10,179 nt of DNA from a virus. Its lineage: Duplodnaviria > Heunggongvirae > Uroviricota > Caudoviricetes. The stretch lies in the IMG/VR virus record IMGVR_UViG_2778261689_000005. One strand, written 5' to 3'. The position numbers were made by a program, and so were the translations under genes. Under the pieces are notes generated by a model, which searched no databases, was not told the DNA's origin, and saw only the letters and a program-made list of their open reading frames with translations. Of the stretch, positions 1-9,514 are shown piece after piece. Numbering within the stretch: position 1 is the first letter of the stretch; every line of letters begins with the position of its first letter.

Positions 1-1053
1 TTACGGGGTAATGCCAACCGCTGCCGCCACTTTGTCGCCACTTGGCAGCGTTGCCAGAGGATTGAAACGGAGCGCCGTTTCCAGATGATCCGGTGCCAGA
101 TGTGCGTAACGCATAGTCATTTTTATATCGTGGTGTCCGAGAATTTTTTGTAAGGCCAGAATGTTTCCACCCGACATCATGAAGTGCGCCGCAAACGTAT
201 GGCGCAGAACGTGTGTGAGTTGACCGCGAGGGAGCACGATAGACGTTTTTTCCATCACGGATAAAAATTGAAAATAGCAGTCTGTGAAGAAATTGAACCC
301 ATCAAGCGCCATGATCTCTTCGTAAAGCTCTTTACTGATAGGGATACTTCTGTTTTTCTTCCCCTTCGTTCTTACAAAGGTAATTCGGTATTTGGTCACC
401 TGTGAACGAGTAAGATTTACGGCTTCTCGCCAGCGTGCGCCTGTGCTTAAGCATATCTTAACTACCAGTGCTAGAATTGGGTCCTGACGTTTGCAATCAG
501 CCAGTAATTCAACAATCTGCTCATGGGTAAGCCATGCCATCTCTTTTTCTGCGATGGTGAATTTTCGCATGTTCTCCAGTGGGTTCGGATACGCCCATTC
601 GCCCAGACGGGATAGTTCGCTAAAAACACTACTTAGATAGCTTTGCTCCAGGTTAATGGTGACCGGGCTTGCTCCTTTCTTCCATTTCTCGCTGAAGTAG
701 ATCTCGCCTGTCAGGCGTTTATCTCGATAGTGGGCAAACATTTTAGAGGTGAGATCGGTTGCAAGAGGATTGCCCAGAGCGTCAACCATCAGCAGCAATT
801 TGTCATAGACATGCTGCCCAGCAGTCAGAGATTTACCATGTAGTTTGAACCATAGCTCAACCACGTCTTTCAGGGTTCGACGATCCACTGATTCGCCCAG
901 CCATGGCTTTGATTCGGTTTCTTCCATAGTGTGACGCTCAAAAGCCAGAGCTTCGCCTTTGGTGGCGAATTGTTTACGCACACGACGCCCACTTCGTCCG
1001 GCGGGGTAACATTCGCAAAGCCATTTCCCTGTGGTGAGTTTTCGTACTGCCAT
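1..1053 (-). CDS. int: P2/186-family tyrosine integrase (site-specific recombinase), about 350 aa
   Basis: Six-frame ORF 1..1209(-). Start placed at ATG 1051-1053 (minus) because the protein from there (MAVRKLTTGKW...GRRVRKQFATKGEALAFERHT) matches the N-terminus of P2 Int as I recall it, and GGAGGG lies about 7 nt upstream on the minus strand. C-terminal catalytic region has tyrosine-recombinase motifs (LSTGARWREA, HVLRHTFA, LGHHDIKMTMRYAH). The upstream 52 codons of the ORF are probably not translated. Confidence 0.9.
   Translation of the reverse strand: MAVRKLTTGKWLCECYPAGRSGRRVRKQFATKGEALAFERHTMEETESKPWLGESVDRRTLKDVVELWFKLHGKSLTAGQHVYDKLLLMVDALGNPLATDLTSKMFAHYRDKRLTGEIYFSEKWKKGASPVTINLEQSYLSSVFSELSRLGEWAYPNPLENMRKFTIAEKEMAWLTHEQIVELLADCKRQDPILALVVKICLSTGARWREAVNLTRSQVTKYRITFVRTKGKKNRSIPISKELYEEIMALDGFNFFTDCYFQFLSVMEKTSIVLPRGQLTHVLRHTFAAHFMMSGGNILALQKILGHHDIKMTMRYAHLAPDHLETALRFNPLATLPSGDKVAAAVGITP
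19..40. repeat. attL core candidate: 22-bp direct repeat CGCTGCCGCCACTTTGTCGCCA, inside the 3' end of int
   Basis: Matches 7325..7346 at 21 of 22 positions (C versus T at the 12th base). A match this long is not expected by chance in 10 kb. Flanking sequence on either side of the two copies is unrelated. Position (int 3' end on one side, just after the ogr stop on the other) is what a P2-like prophage boundary looks like. Confidence 0.6.
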
Positions 1054-1241
1054 AAAAAATGCCCTCCAGTAGAGAGCATTTTTACTGTATGTATAACCAG
1101 TGTCAATGTATGAAATCCTACGACCATACATCTCACTGAAGCCATAATGAAGTTGGCTATTCTTTTTGCTATGTGAGCATGTAACTTTTGCGGTTAACCT
1201 GCGGCTCATTTTTATTTTAGACGCAGATATAAAAGCAAAAG

Positions 1242-1433
1242 TTATCGTGAGTTTTTAGTACAGATTTTTTTGGATTTACTAATAGTTCCATCATTGCAAA
1301 CGAATTTGCCATCTGAGGTACAGTGAGAAACACCTCCCTTTTTCCCTGAGCAGGGATAATTTCTAGCATAGGTAGTTAGTGGGTTTAATAACAAAGAACA
1401 TGACAAAACCACAAAAAATACCTTACCAAGCAT
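1242..1433 (-). CDS. Small predicted secreted cysteine-rich, lysine-rich peptide (63 aa), unknown function; possible moron
   Basis: ORF with strong Shine-Dalgarno (GGGAGG about 5 nt upstream of ATG on the minus strand), beginning 15 nt after the cI stop and in the same frame and strand as cI. N-terminus [23 protein letters not shown] looks like a Sec signal peptide (positive n-region, hydrophobic core, TYA before a likely cleavage site). Mature part of about 40 aa has 4 Cys and many Lys. Local G+C is about 34% by my count over 1211..1440. No homolog recognised from memory. Confidence 0.45.
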
Positions 1434-1448
1434 AGTTTCCTCCCGGTA

Positions 1449-2018
1449 CTATTTAACATACTTGACTGTTAAACTTATAATTTTACCAATTATTTCAATG
1501 TCTTCTATCTTACATTCGAAGGCTCTGTTTCCACCCTCGACGAAGATTCTTCCACCGGGTAAACGAGTAATGTCACGGATCGTTACTTCGCCATCAATAC
1601 TTATTACCCATTTACCATCACGTATATCATCAAATTCTTTATCACAAATAAATTCAGAATTGTTATCTGTGATGACAAAAGGTTTTTTAAACGTAGAGGG
1701 TAAAAATCCCTTATCAAAAATATAAAAACCGTCTTCACGCAAGGCACCATCAGATAATACATATTTAGCAACTTCCATAGTATTTGTATTACCTGAAGTT
1801 TGCTTTGAACCATGTCCGGTTGTGAGCCAATTAAGCGAGGTGCCCGTTTCAAGGGCGCACTGGATTACCCATTCTGCTGGGAATGAGTCACGCATGTAGC
1901 GTGTGGCGAGTGTACTTTTAGAGATTCCTAAATGATCGCACAACGCCTGTCGAGTTTTGAATCCATAAGCTTCTACCATGCGCTCTATAGCGCCTCGTCC
2001 GCCTTTCTCCAAATTCAT
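1449..2018 (-). CDS. cI: Phage 186-type CI immunity repressor, about 189 aa
   Basis: Six-frame ORF 1449..2024(-) begins at GTG; the ATG two codons in (2016-2018) with GGAG about 5 nt upstream is the likelier start. Motifs EAYGF, ALETG..L.WL.TG.G, RLPGG and FEC.I.DI match what I recall of 186 CI. Divergent from the apl-cII operon, as in 186. Confidence 0.85.
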   Translation of the reverse strand: MNLEKGGRGAIERMVEAYGFKTRQALCDHLGISKSTLATRYMRDSFPAEWVIQCALETGTSLNWLTTGHGSKQTSGNTNTMEVAKYVLSDGALREDGFYIFDKGFLPSTFKKPFVITDNNSEFICDKEFDDIRDGKWVISIDGEVTIRDITRLPGGRIFVEGGNRAFECKIEDIEIIGKIISLTVKYVK

Positions 2019-2042
2019 GGTCACTCCAAGTGAACTTTTATC

Positions 2043-2071
2043 TTGACGATTTCATTGTGCGATCGTATGTT
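2043..2071 (+). promoter_or_regulatory. Candidate rightward early/lytic promoter (pR-like): TTGACG, 17-bp spacer, TATGTT
   Basis: -35 TTGACG at 2043-2048 and -10 TATGTT at 2066-2071 with a 17-nt spacer, in the 125-bp region between divergent cI and apl. Flanked by inverted hexamers GTGAAC (2030-2035) and GTTCAC (2078-2083) that could be operator half-sites. A GATC lies in the spacer (2062-2065). Leftward pL could not be placed with confidence. Confidence 0.4.
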
Positions 2072-2143
2072 TATGGTGTTCACAAAATACAAACGATCCG
2101 TATTCGTCCTGATTAATCATCATTAAACGAGGAATGTTGCATC

Positions 2144-2365
2144 ATGAGACCTAACATTTCAATCACTCTTACCACGCCTCATGTGACTATTGAGCGCTAT
2201 AGCGAGCTGACAGGGCTGTCCATCGATACCATCAATGACATGTTGGCTGACGGACGCCTTATCCGTCACCGTTTGCGCAAAGATAAAAAACGCGAAAAAG
2301 TGATGATCAACATAGCAGCCATGACCGTTGATGCGCTTTCAGAATGCAATCTAAACCTTAATTAG
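2144..2365 (+). CDS. Apl/Cox-like helix-turn-helix excisionase and switch regulator, 73 aa
   Basis: First gene of the rightward operon, GAGGAA about 9 nt upstream of ATG. HTH-like segment [25 protein letters not shown] and overall size and position match P2 Cox / 186 Apl. Confidence 0.7.
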
Positions 2366-2397
2366 TTCGATTCTGAAATACATCAGAGGCATTGACC

Positions 2398-2907
2398 ATG
2401 TTTGATTACCAAGTTTCCAAACATCCACATTTTGATGAAGCCTGTCGTGCATTTGCACTGCGCCACAATCTGGTGCAACTGGCAGAACGTGCAGGCATGA
2501 ATGTGCAGATTCTGCGGAACAAGCTGAACCCAGCTCAGCCTCATCTATTAACCGCACCAGAAATCTGGCTGCTTACCGATCTGACTGAAGATTCAACGCT
2601 GGTAGATGGTTTTCTGGCACAGATTCATTGTCTGCCATGTGTACCGATTAATGAGGTGGCAAAAGAGAAACTGTCACATTACGTCATGAGTGCAACCGCA
2701 GAGATCGGGCGTGTTGCTGCAGGTGCGGTATCTGGCGATGTAAAAACCAGTGCAGGTCGTCGTGATGCTATCAGCAGCATTAACTCTGTAACACGACTGA
2801 TGGCGTTGGCTGCTGTTTCATTGCAGGGCCGTTTACAGGCTAACCCTGCGATGGCGAGTGCAGTTGATACCGTGACCGGACTCGGTGCTTCATTCGGTTT
2901 GCTGTGA
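2398..2907 (+). CDS. cII: Phage 186-type CII regulatory protein, about 169 aa
   Basis: Six-frame ORF 2392..2907 starts at TTG; ATG at 2398 gives [20 protein letters not shown]..., which matches the 186 CII N-terminus as I recall it. AGAGG about 8 nt upstream. Confidence 0.85.
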
Positions 2908-2914
2908 GGTGCTT

Positions 2915-3211
2915 ATGCTGACGAAAGAACCATCATTTGCATCGCTGCTGGTAAAGCAAAGCCCGGCAATGCACTACGGTCACGGCTGGATCATGGGTGA
3001 GGATGGAAAACGCTGGCATCCATGTCATTCACAAGATGAATTGCTGTCTGAATTGACCACGAGGAAACGGAGAAAGTCAAAATGTATGCAGCGGAAAGTG
3101 AAGTGGTTTATCAGTTTTGTTACAGAGGGGAGAGTTATTCAGTACCTGAAGATGATTTGCTCTGTTGTTATCCGTCGTTGTCGGGCGATGGCAGTTACTT
3201 TTTCACGCTAA
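2915..3211 (+). CDS. Small early-region protein (98 aa as open), possibly Fil-like; 3' portion uncertain
   Basis: ATG 2915 with GAGGT about 4 nt upstream, immediately after the cII stop. N-terminal half (MLTKEPSFASLLVKQSPAMHYGHGWIMGEDGKRWHPCHSQDELLSELTT) is protein-like. The C-terminal 43 codons overlap the next ORF in another frame and look low-complexity. Confidence 0.45.
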   Translation: MLTKEPSFASLLVKQSPAMHYGHGWIMGEDGKRWHPCHSQDELLSELTTRKRRKSKCMQRKVKWFISFVTEGRVIQYLKMICSVVIRRCRAMAVTFSR

Positions 3212-3306
3212 AGGATGGGACGTTTTTACGGGGAGAGCAGGTTAAAGAGATGGTACGAAAAAATGTATCTCCCCTTGAGCGTTACCGTAAGAACAAAGAA
3301 CGATAG
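3082..3306 (+). CDS. Hypothetical early-region protein, 74 aa
   Basis: ATG 3082 with GGAG about 9 nt upstream. Protein-like composition. Overlaps the 3' end of the preceding ORF by 130 nt in a different frame. Confidence 0.4.
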   Translation: MYAAESEVVYQFCYRGESYSVPEDDLLCCYPSLSGDGSYFFTLKDGTFLRGEQVKEMVRKNVSPLERYRKNKER

Positions 3307-3328
3307 GTGCGTTTGGGGGATATGAAGT

Positions 3329-3670
3329 ATGGCAATTAATGGCGCTGCGGCGACTGTTCCATTAAGCCCCGGAGAACGCCTGAATGGACTTAATCACATT
3401 GCGGAATTAAGGGCGAAAGTATTTGGCCTGAATATTGAGTCAGAGCTTGAGCGGTTTATTAAAGATATGCGTGATCCACGGGATATCAATAACGAACAAA
3501 ATAAACGGGCACTGGCTGCCATATTCTTTATGGCAAAAATTCCAGCTGAACGTCATAGCATCAGCATTAATGAGCTGACCACTGACGAAAAGCGGGAGTT
3601 GATTAAAGCAATGAATCATTTTCGTGCAGTGGTGAGCTTATTTCCCAGACGGCTAACCATGCCGAATTAA
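3329..3670 (+). CDS. Hypothetical early-region protein, 113 aa
   Basis: ATG 3329 with GGGGGA about 8 nt upstream. Balanced, charged, helical-looking sequence with no internal low-complexity. Same strand and operon context as cII and dam. Confidence 0.6.
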   Translation: MAINGAAATVPLSPGERLNGLNHIAELRAKVFGLNIESELERFIKDMRDPRDINNEQNKRALAAIFFMAKIPAERHSISINELTTDEKRELIKAMNHFRAVVSLFPRRLTMPN

Positions 3671-3737
3671 CCAACCAATGAAATTAATGGCGTAAACCCG
3701 CCGGGCATCCCTTTATCTAAATTCAGGAGAATTGATT

Positions 3738-3971
3738 ATGCGTAATATTGAAACCCTCTCGACCAAAACCGGACCGGATGACGCAGGGCTTAATATTTTA
3801 CTGACAGAGGCTCGTCTGGAAGAACGCCGGGCAAGGGCTGAAGCAATGGCAGCTCGCCTTGATAGCCTGGCGTGTCATATCACATCCCGCCAGCTAACCC
3901 ACGTCGAAGCGGCAGAACTGCTTCGTGTGACTGCTGAAGCAATCCAGAACGAAGCGCAGGAGATCCACTAA
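3738..3971 (+). CDS. Hypothetical early-region protein, 77 aa (resembles a conserved P2-like early protein, possibly DUF2732-like; family name from memory only)
   Basis: Six-frame ORF 3732..3971 starts at TTG; ATG 3738 with AGGAGA about 7 nt upstream is preferred. Stop TAA overlaps the start of the next gene (TAATG at 3969-3973). Confidence 0.6.
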   Translation: MRNIETLSTKTGPDDAGLNILLTEARLEERRARAEAMAARLDSLACHITSRQLTHVEAAELLRVTAEAIQNEAQEIH

Positions 3972-4198
3972 TGGCTGATGCAATGGATCTCGTACAGCAG
4001 CGCGTTGAAGAAGAACGCCAACGCCATATCCGTGCTGCCCGTGCCAAAACGCCGGGCGTGTCCCGCGTGCTTTGCATTGAGTGTGAAGCGCCAATTCCGC
4101 CAGCACGCCGCCGTGCCATTCCGGGTGTGCAGCTTTGCATTACCTGTCAGGAAATCGCAGAGCTGAAAGGCAAACATTACAACGGAGGTGCTGTATGA
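3971..4198 (+). CDS. TraR/DksA-family C4 zinc-finger protein, 75 aa
   Basis: CxxC...17 residues...CxxC arrangement (CIECEAPIPPARRRAIPGVQLCITCQ) and size typical of TraR-like proteins of F plasmid and P2-like phages. AGGAGA about 8 nt upstream. Start overlaps the upstream stop and the stop overlaps the dam start. Confidence 0.8.
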   Translation: MADAMDLVQQRVEEERQRHIRAARAKTPGVSRVLCIECEAPIPPARRRAIPGVQLCITCQEIAELKGKHYNGGAV

Positions 4199-5052
4199 GC
4201 ACCATCCTGAAATGGGCGGGAAATAAAACTGCCATAATGTCCGAACTGAAAAAACATCTTCCTGCTGGCCCGCGACTGGTTGAACCTTTCGCGGGTTCCT
4301 GTGCTGTGATGATGGAGACGGATTATCCCAGCTATCTGGTTGCGGATATTAATCCTGATTTAATCAACCTCTATAAAAAGGTTGCCGCTGATTGTGAATC
4401 GTTTATATCTCGCGCCAGAGTTTTATTTGAGATCGCAAACAGGGAGGTGGCTTATTACAACATAAGGCAGGAGTTTAATTACTCAACTGAAATTACTGAT
4501 TTCATGAAAGCGGTATATTTCCTGTATCTCAATCGTCACGGTTACCGTGGTTTATGTCGCTATAACAAGAGCGGGCATTTCAACATTCCCTACGGTAATT
4601 ATAAAAATCCGTATTTCCCTGAAAAAGAAATTCGCGCATTTGCAGAAAAGGCCCAGCGAGCAACGTTTATCTGCGCCAGCTTTGATGAAACGCTGGCGAT
4701 GTTGAAGGCGGGGGATGTGGTGTATTGCGATCCGCCGTATGACGGTACGTTTTCCGGCTATCACACTGACGGCTTCACTGAAGATGACCAGTATCACCTG
4801 GCATCTGTTCTTGAACATCGGTCATCAGAAGGACATCCGGTCATTGTTTCTAACAGTGACACATCCCTGATCCGTTCGCTGTATCGCAATTTTACTCACC
4901 ACTACATCAAGGCAAAACGCAGCATCGGTGTGGCAGCTGGCGAGGGTAAATCAGCAACAGAAATCATTGCTGTTTCCGGGCCGCGCTGCTGGGTGGGATT
5001 TGATTATTCGCGTGGCGTGGATAGTTCTGCCGTGTACGGAGTACGTGCATGA
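4195..5052 (+). CDS. dam: Dam-family DNA N6-adenine methyltransferase, about 285 aa
   Basis: Six-frame ORF 4135..5052; start placed at ATG 4195 (GGAGG about 5 nt upstream, ATGA overlap with the upstream stop). N-terminal LKWAGNK, SAM-binding-like EPFAGSCAV and catalytic DPPY motifs in the order seen in Dam-family enzymes. Confidence 0.9.
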
Positions 5053-6308
5053 GTCATGCCGATATGAACAACTGCTGCGGCTTTAACGAAGCTGCCGCAT
5101 CGTTCTCATGGAACAGCCCGAAAAAGGCCATTAACCCTTATCTGGACCCGGTGGAAGTTGCGCCGGTTTCTACGCTTTCAAACCTGATCACTCTGTACGC
5201 TGCCGATAACGAGCAGGAACAGCTGCGCCGTGAGGCGCTGAGTGATCAGGTCTGGGAGCGTTATTTCTTTAATGAATCCCGTGATCCTGTCCAGCGCGAA
5301 ATGGAACAGGATAAGCTCATTAGTCGGGCAAAGCTGGCGCATGAGCAGCAGCGTTTTAATCCGAATATGGTCATTCTGGCGGACGTCAACGCCCAGCCTT
5401 CCCATATCAGCAAGCCGCTGATGCAACGTATTGAATACTTCAGCAGCCTGGGCAGGCCAAAGGCTTATTCCCGCTATTTACGTGAGACGATTAAGCCATG
5501 TCTGGAACGACTGGAGCATGTACGCGACAGTCAGCTATCTGCATCTTTTCGCTTTATGGCAAGCCATGAAGGGCTGGACGGCCTGCTGATCCTGCCTGAA
5601 ATGAGTCAGGATCAGGTGAAACGCCTGTCCACCCTGGTAGCTGCGCATATGAGTATGTGCCTTGATGCCGCTTGTGGCGATTTGTATGCCACCGATGACG
5701 TTAAGCCAGAAGAAATCCGCAATACATGGGAAAGGGTGGCAGCGGAAACCCTGCGTCTGGATGTCATCCCGCCTGCGTTTGAGCAACTCCGTCGGAAAAG
5801 AAACCGCCGTAAACCCGTGCCCTATGAACTCATTCCGGGTTCGCTGGCGCGTATGTTGTGCGCCGACTGGTGGTATCGGAAATTATGGAAGATGCGTTGC
5901 GAATGGCGGGAAGAGCAGTTGCGTGCAGTCTGCCTTGTCAGCAAAAAAGCATCTCCTTATGTCAGCTATGAAGCCGTGATGCATAAACGTGAGCAGCGCC
6001 GTAAGTCGCTGGAGTTTTTCCGTTCTCATGAACTGGTGAACGAAGACGGCGACACGCTGGACATGGAGGATGTGGTAAACGCCAGCAGCAGCAACCCAGC
6101 GCATCGCCGCAATGAGATGATGGCCTGTGTTAAAGGTCTGGAGCTTATCGCGGAAATGCGCGGTGACTGCGCCGTTTTCTACACCATCACCTGTCCGTCA
6201 CGTTTCCATTCCACGCTAAATAACGGCAGGCCCAACCCAACCTGGACAAATGCGACGGTACCCGCCGTGAAAAATCGTGGCATAAGACCACCGTCGGGGA
6301 AGTGGTGA
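5049..6308 (+). pseudogene. A: Truncated replication initiation gene A (P2 gpA family); N-terminal ~395 codons retained, catalytic domain missing
   Basis: ATGA overlap with the dam stop; GGAG about 7 nt upstream. Internal segments ([35 protein letters not shown]) align with the N-terminal half of P2 gpA as I recall it. The frame ends at 6306-6308 before the region that would carry the metal-binding histidines and active-site tyrosines. The last ~22 codons read gene D sequence out of frame. Confidence 0.8.
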
Positions 6309-7015
6309 AGGAAATAGCCGCGCGGCACAAGCTGAAGATGGCACTGGGTAAAGACCTGTCGGATAAGCCCGTGGAGCATATAGACCAGACTAATGAGAGT
6401 GACGGCAGTTTTCTGATGCGGCTGGCGCGACAGTACGGTGCCATCGCGTCGGTGAAAAATGGCAATCTGTTATTCATCCGGCAGGGGCAGGGCAAAAGCG
6501 CCACTGGTAAACCTCTGCCAGTGATCACTATCACACGCAAGGACGGCGACAGTCACCGATTTACCCTGGCAGATCGCGGAGCCTACACGGGCGTAATTGC
6601 CAGCTGGTTGCATACCCGCGAACCTGCGAAGAAAGAAAGCACCACGGTGAAGCGTAAGCGCAGAACTAAGAAGCAGAAGAAAGAGCCAGAAGCGAAGCAG
6701 GGCGATTATCTGGTGGGTACGGATGAAAACGTGCTGGTACTTAATCGCACTTATGCCAACCGGAGCAACGCCGAACGAGCGGCGAAAATGCAGTGGGAAC
6801 GCCTGCAACGCGGCGTTGCGTCATTTTCGCTACAACTGGCAGAAGGGCGGGCAGATCTCTACACGGAAATGCCTGTGAAGGTCAGTGGTTTTAAACAGCC
6901 GATAGATGATGTGGAATGGACCATTACGACTCTGACGCATACCGTCAGCCCGGATAACGGTTTTACGACCAGTCTGGAGCTTGAAGTGAGGATTGATGAT
7001 TTCGAAATGGAATGA
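6224..7015 (+). pseudogene. D: 3' fragment of tail gene D (P2 gpD family), about the C-terminal 250 codons, lacking its own 5' part
   Basis: Open frame from the stop at 6221-6223 to TGA 7013-7015; first in-frame start is GTG 6302. Segments SWHKTT, ESDGSFLMRLAR, SVKNGNLLF, ADRGAYTGV, GRADLYTEMPVKVSGFK and GFTTSLELEV are characteristic of gpD. Similarity appears to begin near 6255-6265, directly after gene A similarity ends, in a different frame. Confidence 0.75.
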
Positions 7016-7039
7016 TTCTTCGCAATGGAGAACTTTTAA

Positions 7040-7071
7040 GTTTGCAAAATGGAATAATGCGGTATCATTAT
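7040..7071 (+). promoter_or_regulatory. Possible ogr promoter (TTGCAA, 18-bp spacer, CATTAT)
   Basis: Hexamers at 7042-7047 and 7066-7071 upstream of ogr. Weak match; listed only as a candidate. Confidence 0.25.
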
Positions 7072-7105
7072 TGTGAATTTAGCAAAAATGGGGAGAACTC
7101 GAAAA

Positions 7106-7324
7106 ATGATGATTTGCCCACTGTGTGGAAGTGCAGCCCATACTCGCAGCAGTTTTCAGGTATCTTCATTGACCAAAGAGCGTTACAACCAGTGCCAGAA
7201 CATTAACTGCAGCCATACTTTTGTTACCCATGAAACTTTTGTTCGTTCGATTGCAACGCCAAAAGAGTCAAATCCGGTTCAGCCGCATCCAATGAAATCA
7301 GGACAGGTGGCGCTCTCTCTTTGA
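7106..7324 (+). CDS. ogr: Ogr-family zinc-finger late-gene transcriptional activator, 72 aa
   Basis: Six-frame ORF 7073..7324; start placed at ATG 7106 (GGGGAG about 9 nt upstream), giving MMICPLCGSAAHTRSS...KERYNQCQNINCSHTF..., which parallels P2 Ogr including the four zinc-ligand cysteines. Size matches Ogr. Confidence 0.85.
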   Translation: MMICPLCGSAAHTRSSFQVSSLTKERYNQCQNINCSHTFVTHETFVRSIATPKESNPVQPHPMKSGQVALSL

Positions 7325-7346
7325 CGCTGCCGCCATTTTGTCGCCA
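7325..7346. repeat. attR core candidate: 22-bp direct repeat CGCTGCCGCCATTTTGTCGCCA, immediately after the ogr stop
   Basis: Partner of 19..40, 21 of 22 identical. Marks the ogr-proximal end of the element; sequence beyond it is host intergenic DNA leading to the ybjL terminator. Confidence 0.6.
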
Positions 7347-7400
7347 TCGTTAAAAAACAGTGCTTCTAACATCATGATTTTAAACAGCTTAAATTTCAGG

Positions 7401-7447
7401 CAACAAAAAACCCATCAACCTTGAACCGAAATGGCGGGGTTGATGGG
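7401..7447 (-). terminator. Rho-independent terminator candidate downstream of ybjL
   Basis: Perfect 10-bp inverted repeat CCCATCAACC (7411-7420) and GGTTGATGGG (7438-7447), followed on the minus strand by TTTTTTGTTG (complement of 7401-7410). Loop is long (17 nt) but can pair internally. Lies about 113 nt past the ybjL stop. Confidence 0.4.
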
Positions 7448-7559
7448 CTCCACAAAATGGGGACATCAAAGAAAAGCAGTGGCACTAATTAAGACTGATG
7501 CCCTGCGGAAAAGTTCTGCGGTTGTGCAAAAAAATTTCATTTTCAGGGCAACTTCAGTT

Positions 7560-9245
7560 TTATCCTAATCCTGGCCATACCATGACGATGATTGTCCCTG
7601 CCAGCGTCAGCAGGACGTTGGCGATTGCATAGGTGCCCGCATAGCCCAGCGCCGGGATGTTACTGCGAGCTGTATCACTGATGATCTCCATTGCCGGCGC
7701 GCAGGTACGTGCGCCCATCATTGCGCCGAACAACAGCGCGCGGTTCATTCGCAATACATAAGCACCGAACAAGAAACAGATAACCACGGGCACCAGACTG
7801 ACAATCAATCCGGCAATCAACATCTGACCGCCAATCGCGCCCAGGCCGTTATTAATACCGCTACCGGCGCTCAGACCAACGCCTGCCATAAACACCATCA
7901 AGCCGAACTCTTTCACCATGCTTAATGCACCCTGCGGAATGTAACCGAAGGTCGGGTGGTTAGCACGCATAAAGCCCAGCATAATTCCGGCGAATAACAA
8001 CCCGGCAGCGTTCCCCATGCCGAAACTGAATGTGCTGAACTGGAAGGTGATCATCCCGATCATCAGCCCAATAACAAAGAAGGCGCAGAATGCCAGCAGG
8101 TCAGTGACCTGGCTGTGAATCGAGATAAAGCCGATGCGATCGGCGATGGTTTTTACGCGGCGGGCATCGCCGCTGACTTGTAAAACGTCACCTTTGTTAA
8201 GCACGACGTTGTCATCTATCGGCATCTCAATCTGGCTACGAATGACGCGGTTAAGGAAGCAACCGTGATCGGTCAACTTCAGTTGTGCGAGACGTTTACC
8301 TACAGCGTTATGGTTTTTAACGACCACTTCTTCAGTGACGATACGCATGTCGAGAAGGTCACGATCGAAAACTTCTTTACCGTTACGGAAGCTGGGATCG
8401 AGTCGGGCATGGGCGTCGGGATAGCCTACCAACGCTATTTCATCGCCCATTTGTAGCACGGCATCACCGTCTGGATTTGCCAGAATCCCGTTACGTCGAA
8501 TACGTTCAATGTAGCAGCCGGTTTGTCGATAAATACCCAGTTCACGCAGATTTTTGCCGTCGGTCCAGGCCACCAGTTCCGGGCCGACGCGATAGGCGCG
8601 GATCACCGGTAAATAAACCTTACGGTTGGCATCAGTGTCCAGGCCACGTTCGCGGGCGATTTGCTGGGCGCTGGTCTGTAAGTCCTGATGCTGCAATTTC
8701 GGCAAGTAACGCGCACCAACAATCAAACTCACCAGACCGATTAAATAGGTTAAGGCATACCCGAGGCTCAGATTATCCAGTGCCAGTGAGAGCTGCCTGC
8801 TTTCCATGCCGGAATGACGCAGTGTATCGCCAGCACCGACCAGAACCGGTGTCGACGTCATAGAGCCTGCTAACATACCGGCCGTCAGGCCAATATCCCA
8901 GCCAAACAGCTTACCTAACCCTAAGGCGATCACCAGCGCACTGCCAACCATCACCAGTGCTAACATTAGGTAATTTTTCCCATCGCGAAAAAAAATGGAA
9001 AAAAAGTTCGGTCCGGCTTCGACCCCGACGCAGAAAATAAACAGCATAAAGCCAAGATTAAGCGCATCGGTGTTAATGCTGAAATGTTGTTGGCCTAATA
9101 ACAGCGATACGACTAAAACGCCAATGGAATTACCCAGTTGGATCGAACCAAGTCGTAACTTTCCGAGACATAGCCCAAGCGCGAGGACCACAAATAATAA
9201 CAGAATGTAATTCCCATTTAACAATTCGGCGACGTTTATATTCAC
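7560..9245 (-). CDS. ybjL: Putative transport protein YbjL (AAE-family membrane transporter with two cytoplasmic RCK_C/TrkA-C-type domains), 561 aa
   Basis: Full-length ORF; sequence ([34 protein letters not shown]...) recognised as E. coli YbjL. GTG start at 9243-9245 (minus). Hydrophobic N- and C-terminal halves flank a soluble central region. Confidence 0.95.
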
Positions 9246-9514
9246 GGAGGCTAACTTCTTGTTTACTAGTAAGCTGTTGAAAGAAATGGTAATTTACGAT
9301 AATGTTTTTTACCAGAATTCAGGGCGCAGATTCATTCAGCGCACCTAAACGATAGTAAAGTAACAATATATTTTACTAGTGTAATCACATTAGGTATCAA
9401 CGGCTATATGAATTGCGTTGGCCTATATTAGCATGGAATGCGAAGCGGCTTTATCTTACTGAACGCCACACTGGCGAAAAATGTGTTCGATAGACGCAGT
9501 GTCAGGAGGAACGA

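Follow-up and report, generated by a model that had tools for sequence, protein, structure and literature searches.

Defective ('grounded') prophages have in general been stripped by deletion of their lytic, replication and packaging genes but have retained the integrase (PMC7744054). The closest precedent for the locus described here is the cryptic prophage PR-X of Escherichia coli K-12, which consists of the yegZ pseudogene and of ogrK. Both are P2-type remnants in which a 3' fragment of the tail gene D is followed by an intact ogr-type gene at the right end. PR-X is, however, far more eroded: it comprises only ~630 bp, its whole left arm with int, repressor and A is gone, and it has kept 219 nt of D, compared with 756 nt in our case. 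In addition, it occupies a different chromosomal site. The remnant presented here, unlike PR-X, still possesses the complete early and regulatory arm as well as both att cores. Set against grounded prophages as a class, it shows no substantive difference; it is a very young example, and its scar can be read to the base.

Complete relatives of this element are Klebsiella phage 4LV2017 (NC_047818), Escherichia phage Cartapus and the near-complete prophage of E. coli strain 61, the last of which resides at the same integration site as the remnant. Their DNA is 95-99.8% identical to our sequence on both sides of the junction, and their genes follow the same order, but they carry the 24-28 kb that are missing here (the 3' half of A, a DinI/Tum-like gene, cargo, and the head, lysis and tail genes). 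The strain 61 prophage, which is the closest full-length relative at this site, is itself damaged: an IS1 element lies among its tail and baseplate genes, and its D gene is frameshifted. This is decay by a different route.

The DNA analysed (the window; 10,179 nucleotides) is a segment of an E. coli chromosome, the left 7.4 kb of which are phage DNA, whereas the right part consists of host genes. We regard the phage part as the cryptic remnant of a prophage of the P2/186-like type (Peduoviridae) that sits between rcdA and ybjL and lost 24-28 kb internally; the probability of this reading is, in our estimate, about 90%. Membership in the Peduoviridae is evident from the gene order, from the hallmark families and from the integration between att direct repeats. 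Phage_GPA, Phage_GPD, Ogr_Delta and the 186-type CI and CII families were all detected by Pfam far above the gathering scores, and PHROGs agrees. The GPA and GPD profiles were covered only in part. With P2 and 186 as prototypes, the cI, apl, cII, fil and ogr genes are of the 186 type. The coordinates of the features are listed in Table 1.

Table 1. Features of the remnant, its host flank and related loci. Positions refer to the window unless a separate locus (L number) is given.
Feature	Position	Strand	Evidence or remark
Integrase (350 aa), intact	1-1053	-	Pfam Int_N and Phage_integrase; PGAP CDS WP_000290946.1 in strain L9; no internal stops
Small ORF (63 aa), YdcA family by annotation	1242-1433	-	between int and cI
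186-type CI immunity repressor (189 aa), intact	1449-2018	-	Pfam Phage_CI_repr and Phage_CI_C
Apl/Cox-like excisionase and repressor, intact	2144-2365	+	phrog_575 'Cox-like excisionase and repressor', E = 6e-31
CII-like regulator, intact	2398-2907	+	Pfam Phage_CP76, E = 5e-42; PGAP
Dam-type DNA adenine methylase (D12 class), intact	4195-5052	+	Pfam MethyltransfD12, E = 1e-76; PGAP
Truncated replication gene A, codons 1-404 of 804	5049-6260	+	blastn breakpoints; protein alignment with intact A, P2 A and 186 A; motif positions; PGAP
Deletion junction, 'TA' on both parental sides (2-bp microhomology)	6259-6260	+	three-way base display with 4LV2017 and strain 61
Truncated tail gene D, codons 116-366 of 366	6260-7015	+	blastn; frame and codon count; PGAP
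ogr/B-type late-gene activator (zinc finger), intact	7106-7324	+	Pfam Ogr_Delta, E = 7e-22; PGAP
attR core AACAAAAAACCCAT (14 bp)	7402-7415	+	direct repeat of the attL core; prophage end
ybjL	7560-9245	-	host gene right of the prophage, followed by ybjM and grxA
Damage in the strain 61 prophage	L006 23579-24276 and 36780-37879		IS1 insertion; frameshifted D
IS30	L002 14183-15334; L003 13727-14878; L009 20292-21443		outside the window; three remnant carriers

The junction was mapped by comparison with the relatives. In a blastn alignment with 4LV2017, positions 2130-6260 of the window correspond to phage positions 3918-8049 and the match ends inside gpA; positions 6259-7515 correspond to phage positions 32284-33540, where the match begins inside gpD. 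The same breakpoints were recovered with the strain 61 prophage, the left arm of which is 99.8% identical. In the base display, identity with the A side gives way to identity with the D side at 6259/6260, and the two sides share in register only the dinucleotide 'TA'; no longer homology was found at the breakpoints in either relative, and the base-level comparison revealed neither an IS nor other foreign DNA at the junction. Since the identities amount to 95-99.8% over kilobases, chance can be excluded. A first-pass annotation made from the sequence had placed a deletion junction between 6200 and 6310 and had proposed an alignment with a complete P2/186-like genome; this alignment, carried out with both relatives, put the break inside that interval and disclosed the 'TA' microhomology. 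The beginning of D similarity (6259) lies where it had been expected (near 6255-6265), whereas the end of A similarity, given as near 6240, had to be shifted by ~20 nt to 6260.

As had also been noted, the two gene fragments lie in different reading frames, that of A running from 5049 and that of D from 6260. The open frame of A continues past the junction for 15 out-of-frame codons and reaches a stop at 6306-6308. In the truncated A protein, the Phage_GPA profile of Pfam is covered at positions 1-215 of 321 and phrog_91 at positions 16-371 of 852; in the truncated D protein, positions 93-302 of the 305 positions of Phage_GPD are matched. The PGAP/RefSeq annotation already treats both as partial pseudogenes, A being 'incomplete; missing C-terminus' and D 'incomplete; missing N-terminus'; in strain L9 both also bear the flag 'incomplete; partial in the middle of a contig'. 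A megablast search with positions 5049-7015 against 50,697 phage records gave matches to 50 of them; none of these spans both halves in one place, and the A-half matches always stop at query position 1212, that is, at position 6260 of the window.

In the complete relatives, the gene order is attL-int-cI-...-dam-A-(DinI/Tum-like, cargo)-Q-P-O-N-M-L-X-lysis-R-S-V-W-J-I-H-G-FI-FII-E-T-U-D-ogr-attR. The window is colinear with 4LV2017 and with the strain 61 prophage on both arms, and nothing in it matches their middle. Given this order, a single deletion from mid-A to mid-D accounts for the junction, as the first-pass annotation had supposed when it let one deletion extend from the catalytic domain of A to the middle of D. 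The breakpoints are separated by 24,234 bp in 4LV2017 and by 27,833 bp in strain 61, the latter interval, which is absent from the same rcdA/ybjL site in the remnant, including the IS1 element and a different cargo. Note that the loss of 24-28 kb is a measure taken in two relatives whose cargo regions differ, and that the cargo of the ancestor may have differed as well.

The consequences for gene A can be specified from the protein alignment. Intact A comprises 804 residues in the relative, 761 in P2 and 694 in 186. The truncated protein ends at residue 404, immediately ahead of the conserved 'RVAEPHHDGTPHWH' block with the HUH motif (HWH, residue 444 of the intact relative). Also deleted is the sequence YIAKY at residues 498-502, which corresponds to P2 Y450/Y454. 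These tyrosines of P2 (motif C) are described as the active-site pair in PMC3986222, where Odegrip & Haggard-Ljungquist 2001 is cited for this assignment. The remnant A therefore lacks both features of a functional HUH rolling-circle initiator, namely the HUH motif and the two tyrosines. The ori nick site lies inside A, at about codon 620 in the P2 record and about codon 611 in the 186 record. In the intact relative, the equivalent stretch comprises nucleotides 2008-2043 of A; the break is at nucleotide 1212, so that ori is located 3' of it and is lost as well.

Beyond A, the deletion took the DinI-like gene, which in the intact relatives follows A and matches phrog_189, the family annotated for 186 Tum; this gene is absent from the remnant. 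Further losses are the variable cargo genes and all genes for head, packaging, lysis and tail as far as mid-D. In P2-type phages, cos falls within the same interval, and judged from this position it should have been lost too. The post-A region resembles the slot in which P2-like phages carry variable cargo: in 4LV2017 (locus L001, 10905-12888) it contains a retron St85-family effector and a polymerase, in strain 61 (L006, 11464-14552) DUF2971 and DUF262 proteins. It is gone from the remnant.

What survives amounts to ~7.5 kb with intact int, cI, apl, cII, fil, dam and ogr genes and both att cores. Uninterrupted frames were found for int, the YdcA-family ORF, cI, the apl-like gene, cII, fil, DUF5347, DUF2732, a traR/dksA-like gene, dam and ogr, and the PGAP annotation of strain L9 lists the retained genes as normal CDSs without pseudogene flags. 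The intact state of int, cI, apl, cII, dam and ogr, which had been proposed from their frames, is thus borne out. Strain L9 carries the 14-bp core AACAAAAAACCCAT at each border of its prophage. In the window this core occurs as a single copy (expected by chance: 0), located where attR is annotated in 4LV2017 and where homology stops in tandem lysogens. The attL core lies ~88 nt left of the window start; it was found at position 2804 of the strain L9 locus (L002).

In order to assess the distribution of the junction, a 301-bp probe was compared with 5426 complete E. coli genomes, 1289 of which carry this A gene. Whereas 1264 genomes match one or other half of the probe, only two (L9 and EC-07) match across the junction. 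In metagenome contigs and in species-representative contigs (one genome per species), the exact junction was matched 0 times. A third genome of the same clone, TUM12357, has this remnant too, but with another 456 bp missing (window positions 6236-6689). This second deletion was joined at a 2-bp 'AA', again out of frame; it spans the first junction and erases it, which indicates that erosion of the pseudogene stretch continues. L9, EC-07 and TUM12357 have in common an IS30 element that lies at the 3' end of nfsA and immediately precedes rimK.

Within the remnant, the identity among the carriers is 100%, with zero substitutions. Over 18.3 kb, no difference exists between L9 and EC-07; between L9 and TUM12357 there are 4 SNPs plus the deletion. 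The sole base difference between the window and L9/EC-07 is at position 9251, which is C in the window, in TUM12357 and in strain 61 and A in L9 and EC-07. The window thus combines the ancestral base with the L9-type junction; consequently, the junction is older than the SNP shared by L9 and EC-07, and the window stems from a further member of the clone, outside the complete-genome collection. As the retained genes are intact and the carriers identical, the deletion is recent, and it is confined to one small clone. Of the two options that the first-pass annotation had left (a recent deletion or retention of the regulatory half), the first one is favoured by this rare, clonal junction and the zero divergence among its carriers. 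From strain 61, the remnant differs at 25 positions (11 in the left arm, 14 in the right arm). These differences separate two phage lineages and are for this reason uninformative on selection after the deletion.

When genomes were selected that contain at least 80% of window positions 1-7520 in one place, 179 were obtained, among them five special cases, namely the three remnant carriers and two tandem lysogens. Among the matches listed, all beyond these five carry the cI-to-A arm (1-6260). The two tandem lysogens, FDAARGOS_1248 and CFSAN061772, had been considered as candidates for independent A-D deletions of 7-8 kb with both arms. Their annotation reveals that D-ogr(-att) is directly followed by int-cI-...-A of a second related P2/186-like prophage, and both were rejected. 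CFSAN061772 additionally has a truncated tape-measure gene.

With respect to mechanism, the deletion would have occurred inside the integrated prophage, fusing codon 404 of A out of frame to codon 116 of D, and would then have become fixed in the clone, either neutrally or by removing the lethal liability of the lytic genes. The joining would have been illegitimate, by RecA- and homology-independent end joining or by replication slippage at the 2-bp 'TA'. A microhomology of 2 bp is barely above chance, and the 'TA' therefore does not identify the joining mechanism. There is one junction without inserted DNA, and its breakpoints are unrelated to ori, to att or to any IS. A break at the gpA nick site was ruled out by the distance between nucleotide 1212 and the ori equivalent. 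An IS-mediated adjacent deletion was likewise discarded: no IS is present at the junction, and the IS30 of the carriers is 6 kb away, between nfsA and rimK.

The properties of the remnant can be predicted by homology to 186 and P2. With the catalytic motifs of gpA, ori, and the terminase, capsid, tail and lysis genes gone, it is expected to be unable to replicate, to package its DNA or to lyse the host. Probably it is no longer SOS-inducible, since the Tum-like gene, a probable SOS antirepressor, has been lost. The CI protein probably still represses pR and confers immunity against homoimmune phages. Excision by Int and Apl at the att cores could still take place; an excised remnant would be lost, as it could not replicate.

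An alternative to a single event of 24-28 kb is stepwise erosion, in which at least two deletions in succession led to the present junction. The 456-bp deletion of TUM12357 shows that nested deletions do occur in this clone, and the last of a nested series would erase the earlier junctions. Moreover, the strain 61 prophage, with its IS1 insertion and its frameshifted D, shows that other forms of early decay exist. However, no intermediate form was found among the 5426 complete genomes, and a single event is the most parsimonious explanation. We consider a stepwise origin unlikely; both routes lead to the same anatomy with the same consequences.

A second alternative is that the regulatory half (CI immunity, Int/Apl, Dam, Ogr) has been domesticated, that is, selected because it protects the host from superinfection by common homoimmune phages, and that only the stretch between the truncated A and D genes was free to erode. 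In agreement with this proposal, all retained genes are intact, and the sole further deletion, that of TUM12357, took pseudogene DNA alone. The CI protein of the remnant (WP_001047327.1) is the same as that of the strain 61 prophage, and the cI-to-A arm recurs in the set of 179 genomes; taken together, these two findings suggest that homoimmune phages are likely to be frequent. Surveys also report that genes for lytic functions are lost preferentially and that integrase genes are enriched (PMC7744054). On the other hand, there are zero substitutions among the carriers, so that recency alone predicts intact frames, and the junction is limited to one clone. In addition, the cargo region, which encodes a retron-type effector and a polymerase in an intact relative, has not been retained. 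Domestication for host protection is thus an improbable explanation. The more specific statement that the remnant is a selected, host-serving module, supplying Dam and Ogr as well as CI-mediated immunity to the homoimmune 186-like phages that are common at this site, and not merely young debris, deserves somewhat less credence, and the same low credence applies to the notion that selection channelled erosion into the pseudogene stretch, as seen in TUM12357.

That the short A and the short D are instead in their native form and belong to a smaller functional element, for example a phage satellite, which was the finding named in advance as a refutation of the deletion, or that the junction is an assembly artefact, is practically negligible: phrog_12925 does represent the C-terminal part of D alone and short D-like ORFs are called elsewhere, but in relatives with 95-99.8% identity both A (804 aa) and D (366 aa) are full-length, at least 80% of this A gene is covered in 1220 of the 1289 E. 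coli genomes that carry it, the fragments are out of frame and the truncated A is without any catalytic motif, the element consists of P2/186 early genes plus ogr, none of them annotated as capsid, packaging or primase gene, and L9 and EC-07, whose complete assemblies are independent, have the identical junction, which excludes an artefact. Judged from gene content and colinearity, the attributes of a P4-like satellite (own replication, genes for helper exploitation, cos) are not found in it. The phrog_12925 profile (227 positions) matches only the C-terminal part of D, that is, positions 6338-7015 of the window or residues 27-251 of the truncated protein; short C-terminal D ORFs are consequently called often enough to form a family of their own.

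An internal deletion of a P2/186-like prophage is a routine and already known form of prophage decay, and it has little consequence beyond annotation: the ORFs at 5049-6308 and 6302-7015 are the pseudogene halves of A and D. The locus does provide a clean, base-resolved and very young example of such decay, accompanied by a second, nested deletion in a sister strain. The remnant could be used as a clonal marker for the L9/EC-07/TUM12357 lineage. Furthermore, it is a natural construct that could show whether the immunity half of a 186-like phage suffices to protect the host.

Several minor observations concern the regions around the junction. In the gap between D and ogr, a promoter scan, the number of hits of which was not above chance, marked a promoter-like site at 7041-7068, which is kept ahead of ogr. 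The IS30 element overlaps the 3' end of nfsA, which makes it a useful clonal marker, and it may alter the C-terminus of NfsA. The YdcA-family ORF encodes a protein with a hydrophobic N-terminus and four cysteines and is kept in intact relatives; it may be a lysogenic-conversion gene. The immunity region at 1112-2129, which contains this ORF and the gene of the 189-aa CI, has no DNA similarity to its counterpart in 4LV2017. There, a longer CI and an extra gene are found, whereas the flanks are 95-97% identical to the window. Judged from this alignment pattern, the segment is a mosaic swap of the immunity module.
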